Assembly (NCBI GenBank): GCA_049700315.1
Contig: JBNAVN010000005.1
Coordinates: forward strand, 4,305 to 68,304
Direction: 5' to 3'
Source of the DNA: a bacterium
GTDB taxonomy: Bacteria > Hydrothermota > Tepidihabitantia > SM23-42 > JAOAFX01
Length of the DNA stretch: 64,000 nt
Part shown: positions 45,053 to 53,019 of the stretch, piece by piece
Position numbering within the stretch: position 1 is the first letter of the stretch
Layout of the letters: each line of letters starts with the position of its first letter
Position numbers and translations under genes: made by a program
The notes under the pieces: generated by a model
Told to the model about the DNA's origin: nothing
The model's input: only the letters and a program-made list of their open reading frames with translations
The model's database searches: none

Positions 45053-45538
45053 GTGCATCAGCTTGCTGATGCATTTTATCAGAATTATATGATCAGAATA
45101 CTAAAAATGGGGTTCATAACTGGTTTAGGTACAGGTTATGTACCCATCGCGCCCGCTACATTTGCCTGTTTTATCGGCATCGTGCTATGGTACTTTTTGG
45201 TTGATTTTCCATTTATCTATTGGGCAGTTTTTCTAACGCTGTTTATCTGGGGTCTGACAATCAGCCAGGAATTTGTGAAAGAGTGGGGTAAAGATCCGAG
45301 AAAAATTGTTGTTGATGAATATGCTGCAATCCTTATTCCACTTTATTTTGTTCCTAAAAAGATATTGCCGCTTTGCATTGCATTTGTTTTGTTCAGGGTT
45401 TTTGATGTGATAAAACCACCGCCATTAAGGCAATTAGAAAAACTTTCCGGTGCCTGGGGTATTATGTTTGATGACGTAGGAGCAGCGGTATATACGACAA
45501 TAATAGTAATCATAATACGGTTCTTCTTTATTATTTAA
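45053..45538 (+). CDS. pgpA: Phosphatidylglycerophosphatase A
   Basis: KDPRKIVVDE, FRVFDVIKP, GIMFDD; the start may be ATG 45089. Confidence 0.9.
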   Translation: MHQLADAFYQNYMIRILKMGFITGLGTGYVPIAPATFACFIGIVLWYFLVDFPFIYWAVFLTLFIWGLTISQEFVKEWGKDPRKIVVDEYAAILIPLYFVPKKILPLCIAFVLFRVFDVIKPPPLRQLEKLSGAWGIMFDDVGAAVYTTIIVIIIRFFFII

Positions 45539-45567
45539 CTGTATTTACTCATTTCATTAAGTGAATT

Positions 45568-46734
45568 TTATTCAAAGTTGCCTGATAAACATTTTCTCAT
45601 TATCTCAAAAACCTTCTCAATCTCCTCTTCTGTATTATAAAAATGTGGTGAAAACCTCAGACAATTGTTACGCAATGATATAATGATCTGATTCTTAACC
45701 AAATATTGATATATCTTTCTGGGGTTTTCTGGTTTTACAGTAATAATGCCTGACTGTGGTTCTTTTTCTGGTGTAATTATGGGAATTTTTAATTTTTTGA
45801 ACCCTTCCCTCAATTCTCTCTTTAATTTCAATATTCTTTTTTCAACATTTTTCATTCCTAATTCAAGCAGAATTTTTATATTTTCCGTGAGCGCGCTTAT
45901 GCCAATCACATTTCTTGTCCCCATTTCAAACATCCGCGCATCATCAAAGAGCGGGGGAGAGACTTCAAAATTTTCAAAGCTCTTCCAATCAACACCAAGC
46001 CAACCAGTATGAAGTTTTTTCAGATTTTTGAAATTCTTTTTATTTATATACAAAAATCCTGTACCTCCTGGACCAAACAGCCACTTGCCCCCGCCTGTAG
46101 AGAGAAAATCTACTTGTGTCATTTTTGTATCAAATGCTACAGCACCGATTGACTGAATAGCATCAACGATGAGATAAATTCCTTTGCTACTTAGAAACTT
46201 TGATAAAATTGCCAAATCAATCATTTCGCCAGTAAAGAATTGTGTATGATCAAGAACTACAGCGCGGGTTCTTTTGTTTAAGTATCTTTTGATTGCCATA
46301 ACCGGATTCTTGCCACAGAGTTTAACATAGATTTTCTTAACTTCCGGAAGGTTATATTGAACAACATAATGGACAGCAGGGAAGACCTCTGACATTACAA
46401 TTATTTCATCGCCTCTTGTGAATGGTAGATTGATAAGGGCGATGTAAATACCCTCAGAGGTATTATGAGTAAAGACAATTTCTTCAGGTCCAGCATTTAT
46501 CAGGTCTGCAAATGCTTTACGGCTTTTTCTTAATTTTTCAAAATAAGATTTGAAATCGTATTCTGCCTGGCTCTGGTATGTCATTATACATTGTTCAATT
46601 GCCATTTTTGCCCGCATACTCATCGGACCTGTTCCTGCATGATTCAAATAAATTGTTCTATTCGTAATCGGAAACAGCTTTCTGAATTCCTTTATTTTCT
46701 TGTCTTCATCTGTATAAGGTTGCAAAGACTTCAT
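45568..46734 (-). CDS. Class V PLP-dependent aminotransferase / desulfurase-like enzyme
   Basis: YLNHAG, NTSEG, DAIQSIG, GKWLFGP (PLP lysine), FEMGT, RFSPHFYN. Confidence 0.88.
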   Translation of the reverse strand: MKSLQPYTDEDKKIKEFRKLFPITNRTIYLNHAGTGPMSMRAKMAIEQCIMTYQSQAEYDFKSYFEKLRKSRKAFADLINAGPEEIVFTHNTSEGIYIALINLPFTRGDEIIVMSEVFPAVHYVVQYNLPEVKKIYVKLCGKNPVMAIKRYLNKRTRAVVLDHTQFFTGEMIDLAILSKFLSSKGIYLIVDAIQSIGAVAFDTKMTQVDFLSTGGGKWLFGPGGTGFLYINKKNFKNLKKLHTGWLGVDWKSFENFEVSPPLFDDARMFEMGTRNVIGISALTENIKILLELGMKNVEKRILKLKRELREGFKKLKIPIITPEKEPQSGIITVKPENPRKIYQYLVKNQIIISLRNNCLRFSPHFYNTEEEIEKVFEIMRKCLSGNFE

Positions 46735-48640
46735 GAGGTATCTCCTTTAAGAATGGGGAAGGTGTTGTAAAAATAAAATTACCCTGGTAGGTCTTGCGCC
46801 TGCTTGCAGTGGTAATAAACAATTTTCTTTTTGCCCTTGTTATACCTACATACAGCAATCTTCTTTCTTCTTCATACCTTCCTTCTTCTCGGGATCTGTA
46901 ATGGGGTATTATTCCATCCTCAAGTCCGGTTATAAACACCGCTTCAAACTCCAGTCCTTTTGCATTGTGGAGTGTCATCAGGGAAACCTTTTCATTTGAC
47001 CAATCATCAATATCACTACGCAAAGATACACCTTCCAGATAATCCTGGATTGAGGCATTTGGATTATTTTTTACATAATCATTGATAGAAATCAGCAACT
47101 CTTCCACATTTTTACGACGGTCAATTTCTTCTTCGGTCTGTTTTCTTCTGAGTAGTTCAAGATATCCGGATTCATGGGCAATGCGCAGGGCAAGATCGTA
47201 GAGATTTAACTTTTTGTTCATTTTCATGAATCCTTCAAGCATTTTCACAAATGATTTTATGCCTTCTGCACTCCGTGCTACCAATCCCTTAATCTCTGAG
47301 ATTCTTCTTAACGCCTCAAAAAGCGTGATGTTCTGCTCTTTTTGAAAACTTACTATCTTATCAAGAGTTTCCTTGCCAATACTTCGGGCAGGAAGGTTTA
47401 CTATTCTTCTCAGGCTTATTGAATCATTGGGATTATTGATCACCCTGAGATACGCAAGCATATTCTTTATCTCTGCCCGTTCATAAAATTTTAGTGCGCC
47501 AACCACTTCATAAGGAATTTTGTTTCGCGCCAGACATTCTTCAAAAATTCTTGATTGGTAATTTAACCGATAGAAAACAGCAATATTATTGTATTCCCTG
47601 CCTTGATAATGTTCCTCATAAATTTTCTGAGCAACATATTCTGCCTCTTCTTTATCGTTCTCTGCATCATAATATTCTATTGGCTCACCTGTTTCATTTT
47701 CACACCAGAGTACCTTTTTCTTGCGTTCCCGATTGTTCTTGACAACCTCAGATGCTGCCTGTAATATGATTTTCGTTGAACGATAGTTCTGTTCAAGTTT
47801 TATTACCTTGGCCTCAGGGTAATCTTTTTCAAAATCAAGAATATTTCTTATTTCCGCACCGCGCCAGGAATAGATAGACTGGTCGTCATCGCCGACTACG
47901 CACAGATTGCGGTATTTCCCCGCAAGCAATTTTGTGAATTCATACTGGGCGCGATTTGTATCCTGATATTCATCAACCATAATATACCTAAATTTTTCCT
48001 GATAATGTTCAAGAATTTCTGGTTTTTTTCTGAAGAGTTCAACAGTCTTTAAAATCAAGTCATCAAAATCGAGGGCATTGAATTCTTTCAATCGTTGATT
48101 ATACAATTTATAGACGGTCTTAATTATATTTGCATAGGGATTATAACTACTGGTTCGGTATTCATCAGGAGAAATCAAATTCTCCTTTGCACGATTTATG
48201 CACTGAAGGATGAAATCAGGTTTCAATTCTCTGATGTCCAGTTGCAATTCTTTCAAACACTCTTTTGTTAAAGATAACTGGTCTGCTTCATCATAGATTG
48301 TAAAATTTGAAGGAATTGCCAGATGGTGTGATTCTTTACGAAGAATTCTTGCACATGTTGAATGGTATGTTCTTACCCAGACATCTGGTTCTTCACTGTT
48401 CAGAAGGTTGCACACCCTTTGTTTCATTTCATCCGCAGCTTTGTTTGTAAATGTAACAGCAAGGATGTTTCTGGGATTTATTCCTTTTGAAATTAGATAT
48501 GCTATGCGATAGGTGATGACACGGGTCTTACCACTACCTGCACCGGCAAGAATGAGTATGGGACCATCAATTATCTGTACTGCCTTCCATTGTTCAGGAT
48601 TGAGTTCTTCTTCAAAATTAGTTATTCTGCTTGTTAACAT
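46706..48640 (-). CDS. pcrA: UvrD/PcrA superfamily 1 DNA helicase
   Basis: AGAGSGKT, VDEYQD, VGDDDQSIY, LEQNYRS, TLHNAKGLEF, EERRLLYVGITRA. Confidence 0.93.
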   Translation of the reverse strand: MLTSRITNFEEELNPEQWKAVQIIDGPILILAGAGSGKTRVITYRIAYLISKGINPRNILAVTFTNKAADEMKQRVCNLLNSEEPDVWVRTYHSTCARILRKESHHLAIPSNFTIYDEADQLSLTKECLKELQLDIRELKPDFILQCINRAKENLISPDEYRTSSYNPYANIIKTVYKLYNQRLKEFNALDFDDLILKTVELFRKKPEILEHYQEKFRYIMVDEYQDTNRAQYEFTKLLAGKYRNLCVVGDDDQSIYSWRGAEIRNILDFEKDYPEAKVIKLEQNYRSTKIILQAASEVVKNNRERKKKVLWCENETGEPIEYYDAENDKEEAEYVAQKIYEEHYQGREYNNIAVFYRLNYQSRIFEECLARNKIPYEVVGALKFYERAEIKNMLAYLRVINNPNDSISLRRIVNLPARSIGKETLDKIVSFQKEQNITLFEALRRISEIKGLVARSAEGIKSFVKMLEGFMKMNKKLNLYDLALRIAHESGYLELLRRKQTEEEIDRRKNVEELLISINDYVKNNPNASIQDYLEGVSLRSDIDDWSNEKVSLMTLHNAKGLEFEAVFITGLEDGIIPHYRSREEGRYEEERRLLYVGITRAKRKLFITTASRRKTYQGNFIFTTPSPFLKEIPHEVFATLYR

Positions 48641-48646
48641 AGAACT

Positions 48647-49225
48647 TTATCTCAAGCCGGTTATGCTCAAAAAAACCAGACTTATCAGTGCGAGAATTGA
48701 CAATTCCATAAACAATCGCCATGGTCTGGATATTTTTTTGATTAGATAGATCCGTTCTTTAATTGTCATAAAAATCAATATCACAACAAGATAACCCAAA
48801 CCTGACGCCAAAACAGATATTGTGGTATCTAAAAATACAAGTTTGCGATTGATGTTCAGAAATACTGTACCATAAATTGCATAATTTGTATAGAAAAATT
48901 CAGGATATTTATCAAATAATATTGCAAGGTAAGGATAGGATTGATTCATTGCAAATCTTATATAATGAATTGTAAGCCAGGTGATAAGAATAAACAGGAC
49001 AATTGCTACATGTGTGAAGTTCAGCGGTCGCAATAAGAAATAAAAAATAAACAGATTTAACCAGGCGCTGATGAGCATAATAACGATTAGAATGATACCT
49101 ATCATAAGGCATTCTTTAAGATTTACTGCATACAATATGAGGGGGCAAATACCAAGCAAAGTGTAAAGAACGATATTACTGCCGATAATATGATCTACGA
49201 GTATTGCAAGAAGGTTATTTGCCAT
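48647..49225 (-). CDS. rnfA: RnfA-like membrane subunit (second cluster Cys replaced by Tyr)
   Basis: LLGICP and TNYAIYG at the canonical 88-aa spacing; IKERI; position in the rnf operon. Confidence 0.8.
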   Translation of the reverse strand: MANNLLAILVDHIIGSNIVLYTLLGICPLILYAVNLKECLMIGIILIVIMLISAWLNLFIFYFLLRPLNFTHVAIVLFILITWLTIHYIRFAMNQSYPYLAILFDKYPEFFYTNYAIYGTVFLNINRKLVFLDTTISVLASGLGYLVVILIFMTIKERIYLIKKISRPWRLFMELSILALISLVFLSITGLR

Positions 49226-49796
49226 CGGTCTTTTTCTTTACCAATTCAAAACCTAATAATACAAGTGCGGTCATCAGAAATGCACCAGCAGGGGCATTTA
49301 TAAACAACAAAGCTTTCGATGCCATATCAGGACTCAGTATGGGTTTGTTAACTAATGTGCCCTGTCCCAAAATTTCTCTCAAAATGCCTATAACGAAAAC
49401 AATACAGACAACACCAAGCCATTTCTTTGCAGCGGCAAGCACAAATCTTAATCCTGAATTCTGAGTATTGTTGTATCTTAAACTATACAGCACAAAACTA
49501 TTGATAGCTATCAAAGATATAAATACATCTAAATTGTTGCAGAGTTCAGGAAGATGATATGATAATACCTGCTTAATAATAGTAGTAATCGTACCAGTAA
49601 TAATTATCAGAACAAATGTTCTTGAAGGTTCATTCAAGAATTTAGCAAACAATAAGAAAACTATTCCTGACAAAAATAGTACAATCAATGTCACAATACC
49701 GATGCCCAGGGCATTCAATGCTGTATCAGTTAGGGCAATTATGGGCATAACACCAAGAATAATCAAGAATCCATTTTCTCTTTGATTTTGGATCAT
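49215..49796 (-). CDS. rnfE: RnfE-like membrane subunit (both cluster Cys absent)
   Basis: LGVMP, NALGIG, INS, LREILGQG, PAGAF; ATGA overlap with rnfG. Confidence 0.82.
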   Translation of the reverse strand: MIQNQRENGFLIILGVMPIIALTDTALNALGIGIVTLIVLFLSGIVFLLFAKFLNEPSRTFVLIIITGTITTIIKQVLSYHLPELCNNLDVFISLIAINSFVLYSLRYNNTQNSGLRFVLAAAKKWLGVVCIVFVIGILREILGQGTLVNKPILSPDMASKALLFINAPAGAFLMTALVLLGFELVKKKTDGK

Positions 49797-50698
49797 TTCA
49801 GATAATCTTTGAATTTTTTGATATTTTTTTGAACGCTTTTGATCAAGGCACATGATGAAATTGTCGCGCCAGTTATTGCGTCAGGTATACCAGTTTTGAA
49901 TTTATCAAGAAATTCATGTTCTCTTATTTGTTCACCAATGCCTTCGGTTTCTTTTGAATAGGTAATGATAATCCGTTCAATTGAACCATCCTTTCGTAAT
50001 CCAAGAAGGTATTTGATTGTGTCAAGATAGCCAAATGTCTCACCTGAAAACACTATTCCCAGTGTATCAGAATAGGCAATTGCATACCACAGTGTATCTT
50101 TTATTACTTCAGCGAAATTTCTGGCATCAGCAAAGATTTCCTTTTTTATGTCCTGGATTTTGCCCTGATTTAACACCGATCTGTATCTTTCCATTCCTTT
50201 CTTGATTCCTTCACAAACTGCCTTTGAAGAAATAGTCGCACCGGTTATTGCATCAATTTCACCGCCTTCGCTCTTTAATGAAATATGTGATATTTCTTTA
50301 CCGACAAATTGATTTGTAAAAGCCGCGTCTCTGACCTTTGAACCAAGTCCCTGGGTTTCTTTGAATCCTTCTCTCTTCCCGCCGATTCTTATTCCAGTAA
50401 TCTTGCCATTCACATCAACACCTGCAGTTATCGGAATGACACCGGCATAGGCCCTTGTCCAGACTTTGAAGACGATTCCTTCTAAGTTCTTCAATGAATC
50501 ATATGCCTGCCACAGAGTTTCAGGAAGAACCGGCACAAATTCAACAGCCTTGATCACTGATTTCAGTTTGCTGAGATTAGTGTTATCTTCAGTCTGCGCA
50601 ATCAACGGCTTCGTTTGAATATCTGCTATTGTGAGTATCAAGATACTACATATTATGCTAAACAACACAGGGGCTGTTTGATTCAAAAAATTTTTCAT
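49793..50698 (-). CDS. rnfG: RnfG-like membrane-anchored flavoprotein with two FMN-binding domains
   Basis: N-terminal TM segment; two copies each of ETxGxG and DAITGATISS. Confidence 0.88.
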   Translation of the reverse strand: MKNFLNQTAPVLFSIICSILILTIADIQTKPLIAQTEDNTNLSKLKSVIKAVEFVPVLPETLWQAYDSLKNLEGIVFKVWTRAYAGVIPITAGVDVNGKITGIRIGGKREGFKETQGLGSKVRDAAFTNQFVGKEISHISLKSEGGEIDAITGATISSKAVCEGIKKGMERYRSVLNQGKIQDIKKEIFADARNFAEVIKDTLWYAIAYSDTLGIVFSGETFGYLDTIKYLLGLRKDGSIERIIITYSKETEGIGEQIREHEFLDKFKTGIPDAITGATISSCALIKSVQKNIKKFKDYLK

Positions 50699-50709
50699 TG
50701 AAACCTCCC

Positions 50710-51696
50710 TTATTTAATTTTTGGTTGCCACAATCTTCTATTAGTGAGTTTGTCAATCAGTGGCGTTATGAGATTCATCAGGAGTATCGCAGGTGTCACC
50801 CCTTCAGGATAATGTGAGTAATGTCTGAAAATTGTTGTGAGTATACCGCAGCCAACTCCAAATATCCATCTGCCGTTCTTCGTTATTGGAGTAGTAACCC
50901 AATCCGTTGCCATAAAAAAGATCGCGATCAGGACACCGCCAGTAAATAATTGAAAGATTGGATTAATACTATTGGGCATAACGAAATTTAATAATAGAAA
51001 ACCAACAATATAACCTGATACAATTCTGTAGTCAATGATTTTCAGAAAAAGCAATGCCAGGCCACCAATGATCAAGGCAATTTTGCAGGTTTCTCCTATT
51101 GAGCCTCCAATCATGCCTGAAAACAAGGTTCTCAAGAAGTCGGGTGAATTGAATCTGTTAATTATGGTCTCGGTATTACCATAATACGCAGGATTTTTCA
51201 AGATTGTCAGTGGTGTTGCCTGACTGATCGTATCAATTCCTGAAAAAGAGCCATAGGATGGTGTACGCCATGCTGTGTTCATTATCTGTGGAAAACTTAG
51301 AGTCAAAAACGCCCTTGCAGCAAGTGCGGGATTGAGATAATTAAAACCAAGACCGCCAAATACCTGTTTCACCAGTATGATTGCAAAGCCCGAACCAATG
51401 ATTGGCACCCATAACGGAACCCCCGGCGGCAGGCTCATTGCCAATAATAGTCCAGTCAAAATCGCAGTGCCATCACTTATTGTTATCTTCTTTCCGGCAA
51501 GATATTCAAAAACTGCCTCAGATGTTGTGCTTGATATAACACTGAGAAAGACAATCAAGAAAGCATATGTTCCGAAATTCAATATGCCGAAAACCATTGA
51601 TGGAACGAGTCCAAGACATACTGCATAAACTGCTCTATTTGTACTTAGATTTGAATGAATATGGGGGGGAGCAGATACTACAAGGAGCTCATCCAT
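50710..51696 (-). CDS. rnfD: RnfD membrane subunit
   Basis: KQVFGGLG..NPAL, SQATPL FMNylation motif, GGSIGET, FFMATD..TTP, YPEGV. Confidence 0.92.
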   Translation of the reverse strand: MDELLVVSAPPHIHSNLSTNRAVYAVCLGLVPSMVFGILNFGTYAFLIVFLSVISSTTSEAVFEYLAGKKITISDGTAILTGLLLAMSLPPGVPLWVPIIGSGFAIILVKQVFGGLGFNYLNPALAARAFLTLSFPQIMNTAWRTPSYGSFSGIDTISQATPLTILKNPAYYGNTETIINRFNSPDFLRTLFSGMIGGSIGETCKIALIIGGLALLFLKIIDYRIVSGYIVGFLLLNFVMPNSINPIFQLFTGGVLIAIFFMATDWVTTPITKNGRWIFGVGCGILTTIFRHYSHYPEGVTPAILLMNLITPLIDKLTNRRLWQPKIK

Positions 51697-52969
51697 TTGA
51701 AAATCTCATTTTTGCATATTTAAAGTAGTGAACAAGAGGAATATAAGAAGGGCAGACATAGGCGCAGGAACCACATTCAATACACTCATTCAATCCTTGT
51801 CCAAAGGCATCATCATAATTGCTCTGCGTTATCCTGGCAAAAATTGTCTGGGGTATGAGATGCATTGGACAGGCATCAACACATTTTCCGCATCTTACAC
51901 ACCCCTTTTCTTCTCCATCGTTTATTGAATCTTGAAATACAATACCATTGATAGTCTTTATGACAGGTGTGCTCATAGAAAATTGAGCAATACCGGTCAT
52001 AACACCGCCAAAAATAATTTTTTTTACATTGCTTTTCAAACCGCCACAAAACTGGACGATATCACTTATTGGAGTTCCAATTTTCACCAGGATATTTTTT
52101 GGTTGTTTTATTCCATTTCCGCTTACTGTTATTACCCTTTCAATCAGTGGTTTGCCATACTTTACCGCCTGGAAAATAGCATAGCATGTGCTAACATTCT
52201 GTACAAAAACACCAATATCCATTGGCAATCCATTTGCCGGAACATTTTTCTTTAATATTTTTTTTGTCAATAAACTTTCAGCACCCTGGGGAAATCTATC
52301 CGGCATTATTTTTACTTCTGCACCTTCTTTTTTTAAGAGTCTTGCTGCACCTTCATAGTTTTCTGAAATCGCAAAAACAACTCTGGGGACATTAAGAATC
52401 TTTTGAACAATTTTCGCACCTTCAATCACACAGACCGGATATTCAAGGATGATGTGATAATCCGTGGAAATATTGGGCTCTGATTCACAGCCATTGACTA
52501 CCAATATATCCAGTTTTTTTTCTACAGCATAAGAGATTTTTGAATGCGTAGGAAAACCACCACCTCCTAAACCGACAATACCTGCCTCTTTTATTTTTTC
52601 AAGAAGTTCCTTTCTATCAAAAGACTGGTAATCAACATTGATAAGTGCCTGGTCCCAATCCTCGGAATAATCAGTTTCAATAATACAACACAATGCCCTG
52701 CCAAGCGTGGGATGGGTATAGGATCTTATATCTATTACTTTGCCTGCAACACATGAATGAATACAGGCAGATTGATTTCCGTTTGAATCTCCAATCTTTG
52801 TGCCTATTTTTACGATATCACCAGGCTCTACGACAGGAGTAGCGGGTTTGCCCTTGTGCTGACAAAAAGGAATATATACTCGTTCCGGAATAGGCATTAC
52901 TTCAACGGGAAGATCAAGAATATTTTTTTGTTTTCTCAGGTGAACTCCGTCGCAAAAATTTCCAAACAT
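51689..52969 (-). CDS. rnfC: RnfC NADH/FMN-binding 2x[4Fe-4S] subunit
   Basis: GIVGLGGGGFPT, NGCESEP, PQGAE, CVRCGKCVDACP, CIECGSCAYVCP. Start set at ATG 52969, 7 nt after a TTGACT-16-TATAAT promoter (52977-53004). Confidence 0.92.
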   Translation of the reverse strand: MFGNFCDGVHLRKQKNILDLPVEVMPIPERVYIPFCQHKGKPATPVVEPGDIVKIGTKIGDSNGNQSACIHSCVAGKVIDIRSYTHPTLGRALCCIIETDYSEDWDQALINVDYQSFDRKELLEKIKEAGIVGLGGGGFPTHSKISYAVEKKLDILVVNGCESEPNISTDYHIILEYPVCVIEGAKIVQKILNVPRVVFAISENYEGAARLLKKEGAEVKIMPDRFPQGAESLLTKKILKKNVPANGLPMDIGVFVQNVSTCYAIFQAVKYGKPLIERVITVSGNGIKQPKNILVKIGTPISDIVQFCGGLKSNVKKIIFGGVMTGIAQFSMSTPVIKTINGIVFQDSINDGEEKGCVRCGKCVDACPMHLIPQTIFARITQSNYDDAFGQGLNECIECGSCAYVCPSYIPLVHYFKYAKMRFSNG

Positions 52970-53019
52970 TATTGGTATTATACATGATTTTGGCACCAAG
53001 TCAAGTTTCACATTTCCTC

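Follow-up and report, generated by a model that had tools for sequence, protein, structure and literature searches.

What can an Rnf complex still do once the iron–sulfur centre in the middle of its electron path has lost most of its ligands? This question is raised by a five-gene operon in a 64,000-nucleotide stretch of DNA (contig JBNAVN010000005.1 of assembly GCA_049700315.1, positions 4,305 to 68,304; hereafter the window) from a bacterium of the lineage SM23-42. The operon lies at 52969-48647 on the minus strand, as do all window features given below, and carries rnfC, rnfD, rnfG, rnfE and rnfA in this order, with neighbouring genes overlapping or 6-11 nt apart. In Rnf, electrons run from RnfB to AE1, the membrane [2Fe-2S] cluster of RnfA and RnfE, and from there through the flavin mononucleotide (FMN) of RnfG, the FMN of RnfD, riboflavin, the Fe-S clusters of RnfC and FMN to nicotinamide adenine dinucleotide (NAD+); reduction of AE1 triggers Na+ pumping (PMC11889175, PMC12174285). 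In Acetobacterium woodii, mutating the cysteines that coordinate AE1 abolishes activity and growth (PMC11889175). Because three of these four ligands are gone from the window proteins and the A. woodii mutants are inactive, the encoded complex is predicted to be unable to act as a canonical ferredoxin:NAD+ oxidoreductase and Na+ pump. We lean towards reading it as an Rnf-derived, one-armed wire, NAD(H)–RnfC–RnfD–RnfG(FMN ×2), that would lead to the periplasm.

The loss itself is seen in RnfE (49215-49796; 193 amino acids, its ATG overlapping the rnfG stop) and RnfA (48647-49225; 192 amino acids). RnfE reaches only 95.9 bits with TIGR01948 (cutoff 213.4) and RnfA only 70.5 bits with TIGR01943 (cutoff 229.3), while the Pfam family PF02508 is matched by both. 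Both were aligned to the solved Rnf chains of A. woodii, Clostridium tetanomorphum and Azotobacter vinelandii and to the Nqr chains of Vibrio cholerae. The membrane [2Fe-2S] ligands of A. woodii are RnfA C25 and C113 and RnfE C25 and C108 (PMC11889175). At these positions the window proteins keep a single cysteine, RnfA Cys27 in the GICP motif; TNCAVLG of RnfA has become TNYAIYG (Tyr115), and in RnfE LGMCP reads LGVMP (Met) and VNCIILG reads INSFVLY (Ser). Two further residues are also changed. RnfE Glu115, the cytosolic Na+-entry residue (PMC11889175), aligns with Arg in the window and is Arg, Lys or Gln across the lineages examined, and RnfA Lys32, proposed to interact with the proximal cluster of RnfB (PMC11889175), is Val. 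In addition, phmmer searches of the six-frame translation of all 64 kb with Escherichia coli RsxB, a clostridial-type RnfB and E. coli Ftp/ApbE found neither rnfB nor apbE in the window; these queries matched only the ferredoxin part of RnfC.

Relatives indicate that this state is conserved. RnfD has hundreds of homologues at 50-70% identity, of which those that carry an organism name belong to candidate division WOR-3. The genomic contexts of relatives were gathered by exact-protein look-up and by scanning one genome per GTDB species with a profile of the cysteine-less RnfA, which returned eight species, all WOR-3 or uncultured bacteria. Together, the look-ups and the scan yielded 12 diverged cysteine-less lineages (loci are labelled L below), with RnfD identities of roughly 60-95%. 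The order rnfC-D-G-E-A-pcrA is kept in 12 of 12, and the flanking DNA fetched for each, at most 10 kb per side, contained neither an RnfB nor an ApbE homologue. Among the genomes of this clade are those with the contig prefixes JBDRWH01, JBBINQ01, CAYQKL01, JBBILZ01, DAIRCK01, JAOAFX01, JBDRWA01, CBFGJP01 and FWPU01 (assembly GCA_900174565.1). At the first RnfE cysteine position the 12 lineages carry Met, Ile, Val, Leu or Thr, and at the second Ser, with one Pro; the second RnfA position is Tyr, with two Phe. The first RnfA cysteine is retained in 11 of the 12 and replaced by Ser in L020, which has no ligand cysteine left. Recurrence of the same substitutions in 12 diverged lineages means that they are not sequencing errors. 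New motifs have also become invariant in the clade, for example Y(P/T)EFF.TN(Y/F)A.YG in RnfA and REI.G.G in RnfE, and the clade-specific RnfA motif YPEFFYTNYAIYG is present in the window. A new metal site at the old cluster position was considered and rejected, given that the substitutes vary (M/I/V/L/T and Y/F) and L020 lacks even the last Cys; an RnfE Asp that is Asn in two lineages further disfavours it. The variable, mostly hydrophobic or aromatic substitutes, together with L020, instead argue for a filled cavity at the former cluster site.

The clade is so diverged in RnfE that a word-indexed search with this protein gave only three matches, and in a HMMER search of the full library about ten 50%-identity clusters of the window type precede canonical RnfE. 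Loss of the cysteines is derived and took place in a hot-spring family of the WOR-3 order SM23-42. Several isolate names from the profile scan match the hot-spring sample series given in the accessible part of a WOR-3 survey. That part also describes QZM1.Bin.155, a hot-spring metagenome-assembled genome (MAG) of the order SM23-42, family unassigned, with a GC content of 37.8%; the window has a GC content of ~38%.

The subunits on the NADH side are fully equipped. RnfC (51689-52969; 426 amino acids from the ATG at 52969, a start that agrees with those of its relatives) scores 449.7 bits with the NCBIfam model TIGR01945 (cutoff 245.95) and carries the NADH/FMN loop GLGGGGFPT and two CxxCxxCxxxCP motifs for 4Fe-4S clusters. 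RnfD (50710-51696; 328 amino acids) scores 276.3 bits with TIGR01946 (cutoff 207.05) and has PF03116 as its sole Pfam domain. Residue roles were read off the A. woodii complex (PMC11889175): the Thr for covalent FMN in DTISQATPL and the riboflavin ligands Asn (in NYLNPA) and Asp (in FMATD) of the window RnfD align with A. woodii RnfD T156, N123 and D249, respectively. RnfG (49793-50698; 301 amino acids) is only just recognized by TIGR01947 (106.2 against a cutoff of 102) and consists of an N-terminal membrane helix followed by two tandem FMN-binding domains, seen as two FMN_bind stretches with Pfam. The flavinylation motif DAITGAT occurs twice, at residues 149 and 273. Domain 1 aligns with A. 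woodii T185, the FMN threonine, and Y113, while residues ~184-300 form the second domain, which is 33% identical to the first (E 5e-16). Structure prediction, run on database homologues of RnfG, gave an AlphaFold model (mean predicted local distance difference test score 85.5) with a membrane helix and two similar domains joined by a short low-confidence linker, and the best Foldseek matches of this model are RnfG and NqrC. All 12 cysteine-less lineages, and two canonical WOR-3 lineages as well, retain the cofactor motifs of RnfC, RnfD and both RnfG domains. The initial annotation of the window, made from the sequence alone, had described an RnfC with its loop and both 4Fe-4S motifs, an RnfD with its FMN Thr, a two-domain RnfG and intact RnfA and RnfE proteins short of three of four cluster cysteines; family models and alignments, for RnfA and RnfE those to the solved chains, agree with it on each of these points.

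The two canonical WOR-3 lineages allow the changes to be ordered. L008 (complete genome CP070686.1, family SM23-42) and L012 carry rnfC-D-G-E-A with canonical RnfA and RnfE and all four cysteines. Their RnfG proteins are tandem (~298 amino acids), and no rnfB was found within 10 kb of either operon. Nearly all of the top 120 RnfG homologues are 290-301 amino acids long, and those among them with an organism name are WOR-3. Since L008 and L012 combine four cysteines with a tandem RnfG and an unlinked rnfB, both of the latter traits predate the cysteine loss. Judged from these loci, this part of WOR-3 inherited tandem RnfG and an unlinked (or absent) rnfB from its ancestors, and what sets the clade of the window apart is only the loss of the cysteines and the faster evolution of RnfA and RnfE. 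The initial annotation had treated the missing rnfB, the doubled flavoprotein and the lost cluster as one rewiring, which these loci contradict. In its proposed survey of relatives, the expected co-occurrence does appear, with tandem RnfG and no linked rnfB in 12 of 12 cysteine-less lineages, but the same two traits are found in canonical L008 and L012.

Loss of the cluster ligands is not confined to this clade. Of the 150 cluster representatives closest to the RnfE of the window, 42 are short of one or both RnfE cysteines (both in 19, the second only in 17, the first only in 6); some ten WOR-3-type entries and the window protein are among those counted, and the ranking favours cysteine-less proteins, so that they are not an estimate of frequency. 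Within this query-biased sample, cluster-less RnfE-like proteins are seen to be spread over many lineages. Two of the 42 were placed in their genomic context. One, a counterpart of the window operon, is L025 (Logan SRR30092111_165626, L025:3142-9231), with 56% GC and the order apbE-PF07456-rnfC-rnfD-rnfG-rnfE-rnfA, followed by an Smr gene. Its RnfG (309 amino acids) has two FMN_bind stretches, the second with a degenerate motif (ANAT), and its RnfC Fe-S motifs are intact. The ligand positions are Thr and Tyr in rnfE and Tyr and Ser in rnfA, so that four of four cysteines are gone, and no rnfB was found at the locus. Because the L025 subunits resemble canonical Rnf more than they do the WOR-3 type, the same architecture arose there independently. 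A metagenome scan for relatives of this RnfE type returned two short contigs only; L026:20-986, 88% identical to its L025 counterpart, is likewise cysteine-less. A different arrangement is found in L023 (L023:1-2035) and L024 (L024:33-2259), with 33% GC. Here rnfD with its FMN threonine is followed by a gene for a 166-amino-acid protein at the RnfG position, then by rnfE and rnfA. The 166-amino-acid protein has a membrane anchor, no FMN_bind or other Pfam match and no flavinylation motif; the cluster positions are Ser and Ser in RnfE and Asp and Ser in RnfA, leaving no redox site in G, E or A. The next genes encode a glycosyltransferase and an SLH-domain protein, and rnfB is absent from these contigs.

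Based on these findings, we propose a plausible path for the window complex. Electrons would travel between NAD(H) in the cytoplasm and a partner on the far side of the membrane through the FMN and the two 4Fe-4S clusters of RnfC, the riboflavin and FMN of RnfD, and then FMN-1 and FMN-2 of RnfG, with the second RnfG domain, on its flexible linker, extending the reach to the outside partner. RnfA and RnfE would be structural, a core on which RnfD and the anchor of RnfG are held, and would neither carry electrons nor gate a Na+ pump through a cluster. In the outward direction NADH would be oxidised and NAD+ regenerated by passing electrons to an external acceptor; the known mechanism would predict no pumping. 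In the inward direction, a low-potential periplasmic donor, more reducing than NAD+, would reduce NAD+, and the complex would act as a charge-separating loop. The initial annotation had likewise suggested an NADH-to-periplasm flavin wire with RnfA and RnfE as scaffold and had denied the complex a ferredoxin:NAD+ activity. The denial is supported by the lost ligands together with C-D-G cofactor sites that are invariant in 12 lineages; the wire fits the evidence and gains from L025, whose convergent architecture beside apbE strengthens this reading, and it stays a proposal. Whether RnfB-less, cluster-less Rnf makes up a recurrent class of enzymes, evolved at least twice (in the hot-spring WOR-3 family and in the 56%-GC lineage) as one-armed NAD(H):extracytoplasmic flavin conduits with RnfA and RnfE as scaffold or with a cluster-independent ion or flavin function, is more tentative: we regard it as an open bet that falls a little short of even.

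Several observations weigh against the wire. Beside the operon there is no conserved gene for an acceptor, a donor or a partner, its neighbours being pcrA and an aminotransferase gene. No gene for ApbE, required for the three covalent FMNs, was found in the window or in the fetched flanks of the relatives. Tandem RnfG is older than the cysteine loss and thus is not by itself a sign of new function. The canonical loci also have no linked rnfB, so the lack of this gene in the operon says little about the whole genome; indeed, K03616 (rnfB) is scored in 40 of the 44 MAGs counted in the accessible part of the WOR-3 survey (PMC12542636), some of which have few or no other rnf genes. These 44 are the columns headed Subgroup4, and the clade of the window belongs to subgroup 2, order SM23-42. 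Finally, L023 and L024 indicate that RnfA/E-like pairs can persist where no flavin wire is possible.

The last point bears on the alternative that survives best, in which RnfA and RnfE are no passive scaffold but do something of their own that needs no cluster, be it as a channel for ions or small molecules or in flavin export, while a C-D-G redox arm works beside them. This role and the wire do not exclude each other. RnfA Glu109, a new acidic residue in the loop of transmembrane helix 4 at the former cluster site, is invariant, and the Asp (or Asn) of the RnfE motif ALTDS is nearly so. L023 and L024 keep cysteine-less RnfA and RnfE despite a protein without flavin motif at the RnfG position, which hints at a non-redox role beyond that of a scaffold, and in L025 the operon is paired with a PF07456 membrane protein and apbE. 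However, the acidic residues do not hold throughout, L016 and L018 having Asn, and a scaffold under structural constraint would also account for these data; we consider an independent role unlikely, though it deserves to be kept in mind.

Next stands a path like that of NQR (Na+-NQR, a Na+-translocating NADH:quinone oxidoreductase), in which NADH is oxidised at RnfC and the riboflavin of RnfD reduces menaquinone, with the RnfG flavins as a side branch or regulatory. RnfD is homologous to NqrB, which hands electrons from riboflavin to quinone (PMC12174285), and QZM1.Bin.155, a MAG of the clade, is scored with nuo genes in the accessible part of the survey and may make quinones. For NqrB, a quinone pocket with two glycines has been described (PMC4014512). 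Against an NQR-like path, the FMN threonine of RnfD and the flavinylation motif of each RnfG domain do not vary, and an NADH-to-quinone path purely on the cytoplasmic side would have no need of them. We rate this path as distinctly unlikely.

Less probable again is a complex that is still a ferredoxin:NAD+ oxidoreductase, with the product of a remote rnfB docking on RnfA and RnfE and a centre held by Cys27 and non-cysteine ligands. L008 and L012 keep four cysteines without a linked rnfB, so an unlinked rnfB is probably present in the phylum, as the K03616 scores in most of the MAGs counted would also allow; moreover, RnfA Cys27 is found in 11 of 12 lineages and the Glu of YPEFF is invariant. 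However, what stands in place of the ligands is mostly hydrophobic or aromatic and differs from lineage to lineage, L020 is without any cysteine, mutation of the cluster cysteines kills the A. woodii activity (PMC11889175), and the Lys32 position of RnfA has become Val. RnfA and RnfE also evolve far faster than their canonical counterparts do. Between L008 and L012, the canonical WOR-3 pair, they are the most conserved subunits (A 92% and E 86% identity, against D 84%, C 77% and G 67%), whereas among the cysteine-less lineages they rank last in conservation (for example, the window against L004: E 46% and A 55%, against C 70%, D 67% and G 68%). The change from slowest- to fastest-evolving subunits indicates that constraint was relaxed upon loss of the cluster. 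Taken together, these data make a surviving ferredoxin:NAD+ enzyme very improbable.

Relaxation did not amount to abandonment. The ratio of nonsynonymous to synonymous substitution rates (dN/dS) was estimated by the Nei-Gojobori method for five pairs, of which L006-L019 is unsaturated. For this pair the values are 0.195 for rnfE, 0.202 for rnfA, 0.165 for rnfC, 0.160 for rnfD, 0.183 for rnfG and 0.099 for pcrA; for L021-L022 they are 0.23 for rnfE and 0.24 for rnfA. Across four of the five pairs rnfA and rnfE lie at 0.10-0.24, and a single noisy value of 0.54 comes from very few substitutions. Purifying selection on RnfA and RnfE is relaxed yet clear, and the dN/dS check put forward in the initial annotation therefore speaks against neutral decay. 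That RnfA and RnfE are drifting into pseudogenes of a functionless complex, as their scores far under the NCBIfam cutoffs and their place as the least conserved subunits might suggest, is hardly credible given rnf reading frames intact in 12 of 12 lineages, these dN/dS values, the new clade-invariant motifs and the finding that an apparent rnfE frameshift in the closest relative (L015:470-1070) coincides with a stretch of N in its scaffold and so marks an assembly gap, not a pseudogene.

The operon has a promoter of its own. A sigma-70-like site, TTGACT-16-TATAAT (52977-53004), matches the consensus at 11 of 12 positions and is the top score in an 8-kb scan. Promoter-like sites overall are not enriched (31 observed against 27.6 expected from shuffles), so that only the position and quality of this site count. 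Its -10 box ends 7 nt upstream of the rnfC ATG (52969), and no Shine-Dalgarno sequence fits between the two; because of this spacing, the rnfC message may be leaderless. The pcrA helicase gene (46706-48640) begins 6 nt past the rnfA stop and is a neighbour, not a functional part; its end is overlapped by a class V aminotransferase gene (45418-46734), whose Pfam family was taken from syntenic relatives. No terminator-like hairpin lies between rnfA and pcrA on the minus strand. The first downstream of the rnf genes on that strand is at 45434-45418, after the aminotransferase gene, and the sole same-strand hairpin upstream of it is inside rnfD. The transcription unit thus probably ends after the aminotransferase gene. 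An rnfCDGEA operon that runs from its own promoter straight into pcrA without rnfB, as the initial annotation had it, is what gene calls, the promoter scan and phmmer recover in the 64-kb window. As to neighbours elsewhere, pcrA stands immediately 3′ of rnfA, with a few-base gap or an overlap, in the window, L004, L006, L010, L011 and L016-L022, and in the canonical WOR-3 relatives rnfA is followed, after a gap, by a nitroreductase gene, not pcrA. Separately, a lone gene of the Rnf-Nqr family (PF02508; 229 amino acids) at L003:3797-4486 sits on a 5-kb contig without other rnf or nqr genes and adjoins a dCTP deaminase gene with an intein.

A clade that has long kept the whole Rnf core under selection without the cluster amounts to a natural knock-out. 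It can reveal what RnfA and RnfE do beyond holding the cluster and whether the RnfC-RnfD-RnfG arm works alone, and it can show a subunit being retained as scaffold after the loss of an arm, a step postulated for the origin of NQR. There is also a consequence for annotation. In its accessible part, the WOR-3 survey treats these operons as standard Na+-translocating Rnf, and genome surveys of this kind enter them as 'Rnf complex present' and conclude that WOR-3 has ferredoxin-linked sodium energetics (PMC12542636), a conclusion that is probably wrong for this clade. If a recurrent one-armed class does exist, annotation as a Na+-pumping, ferredoxin-dependent Rnf is wrong for the clade. The operon is also a candidate for the point at which NADH-driven extracytoplasmic electron transfer begins in uncultured bacteria of hot springs, with a convergent counterpart beside apbE in another lineage.

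How does this operon compare with known systems? It shares with the solved Rnf complexes (9ERI of A. woodii, 7ZC6 of C. tetanomorphum and 8AHX of A. vinelandii) five homologous subunits, the clostridial gene order and every checked cofactor residue of RnfC, RnfD and RnfG domain 1. It differs in having no rnfB in the operon, in the loss of three of four [2Fe-2S] ligands and of RnfE Glu115, in RnfA and RnfE proteins far below the family cutoffs and in the extra FMN domain of RnfG. Rnf is a complex of six subunits including RnfB, a ferredoxin-accepting polyferredoxin with a membrane helix that is usually co-encoded, and no such linked gene is found here. A 2025 review calls the membrane cofactors of Rnf and NQR 'strictly conserved' (PMC12174285).

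PplA, from the extracellular electron transfer system of Listeria, has two FMN domains as well. Like PplA and the multi-flavinylated RnfG proteins already described in RNF clusters, the window RnfG is an extracytoplasmic protein with at least two FMN domains of the ApbE type, a design proposed to feed outside acceptors (PMC8238504). In those clusters, however, a second path is added onto a complete Rnf (PMC8238504), and PplA is fed by the quinone pool, not by RnfC and RnfD. The survey behind this description defined RNF by the presence of RnfB (K03616) in the cluster (PMC8238504), so operons of the window type would not have been counted. A similar logic with another composition is seen in NQR/RNF-like one-way systems, which use an RnfD-NqrF fusion (PF03116 + PF00175) and do without RnfC, RnfA and RnfE (PMC8238504); in the window RnfD is unfused, NADH would enter through RnfC, and RnfA and RnfE are retained. 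The L025-type operon shares rnfC-D-G-E-A, no rnfB, a tandem RnfG, cysteine loss in RnfA and RnfE and intact RnfC Fe-S motifs; it differs in its independent origin, in the apbE and PF07456 genes directly upstream, in the ANAT form of the second motif and in the loss of four cysteines against three.

A further parallel is Na+-NQR. A literature search for rnfB-less Rnf gave nothing relevant beyond the hypothesis that NQR descends from an rnfCDGEA operon without rnfB, whose RnfC side decayed while the RnfA/RnfE cluster persisted (PMC4014512). No Na+-NQR is encoded here, as all nqr models score far under their cutoffs on the window proteins and the operon has no NqrF-type gene. Both systems would nonetheless be Rnf derivatives that gave up one electron arm and kept an inactivated part for structure, NqrA in the one and, by our reading, RnfA and RnfE in the other. 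In this respect they are mirror images: NQR kept the RnfA/RnfE cluster, lost the cofactors of RnfC and recruited NqrF, whereas the window operon has a fully equipped RnfC and has lost the cluster.

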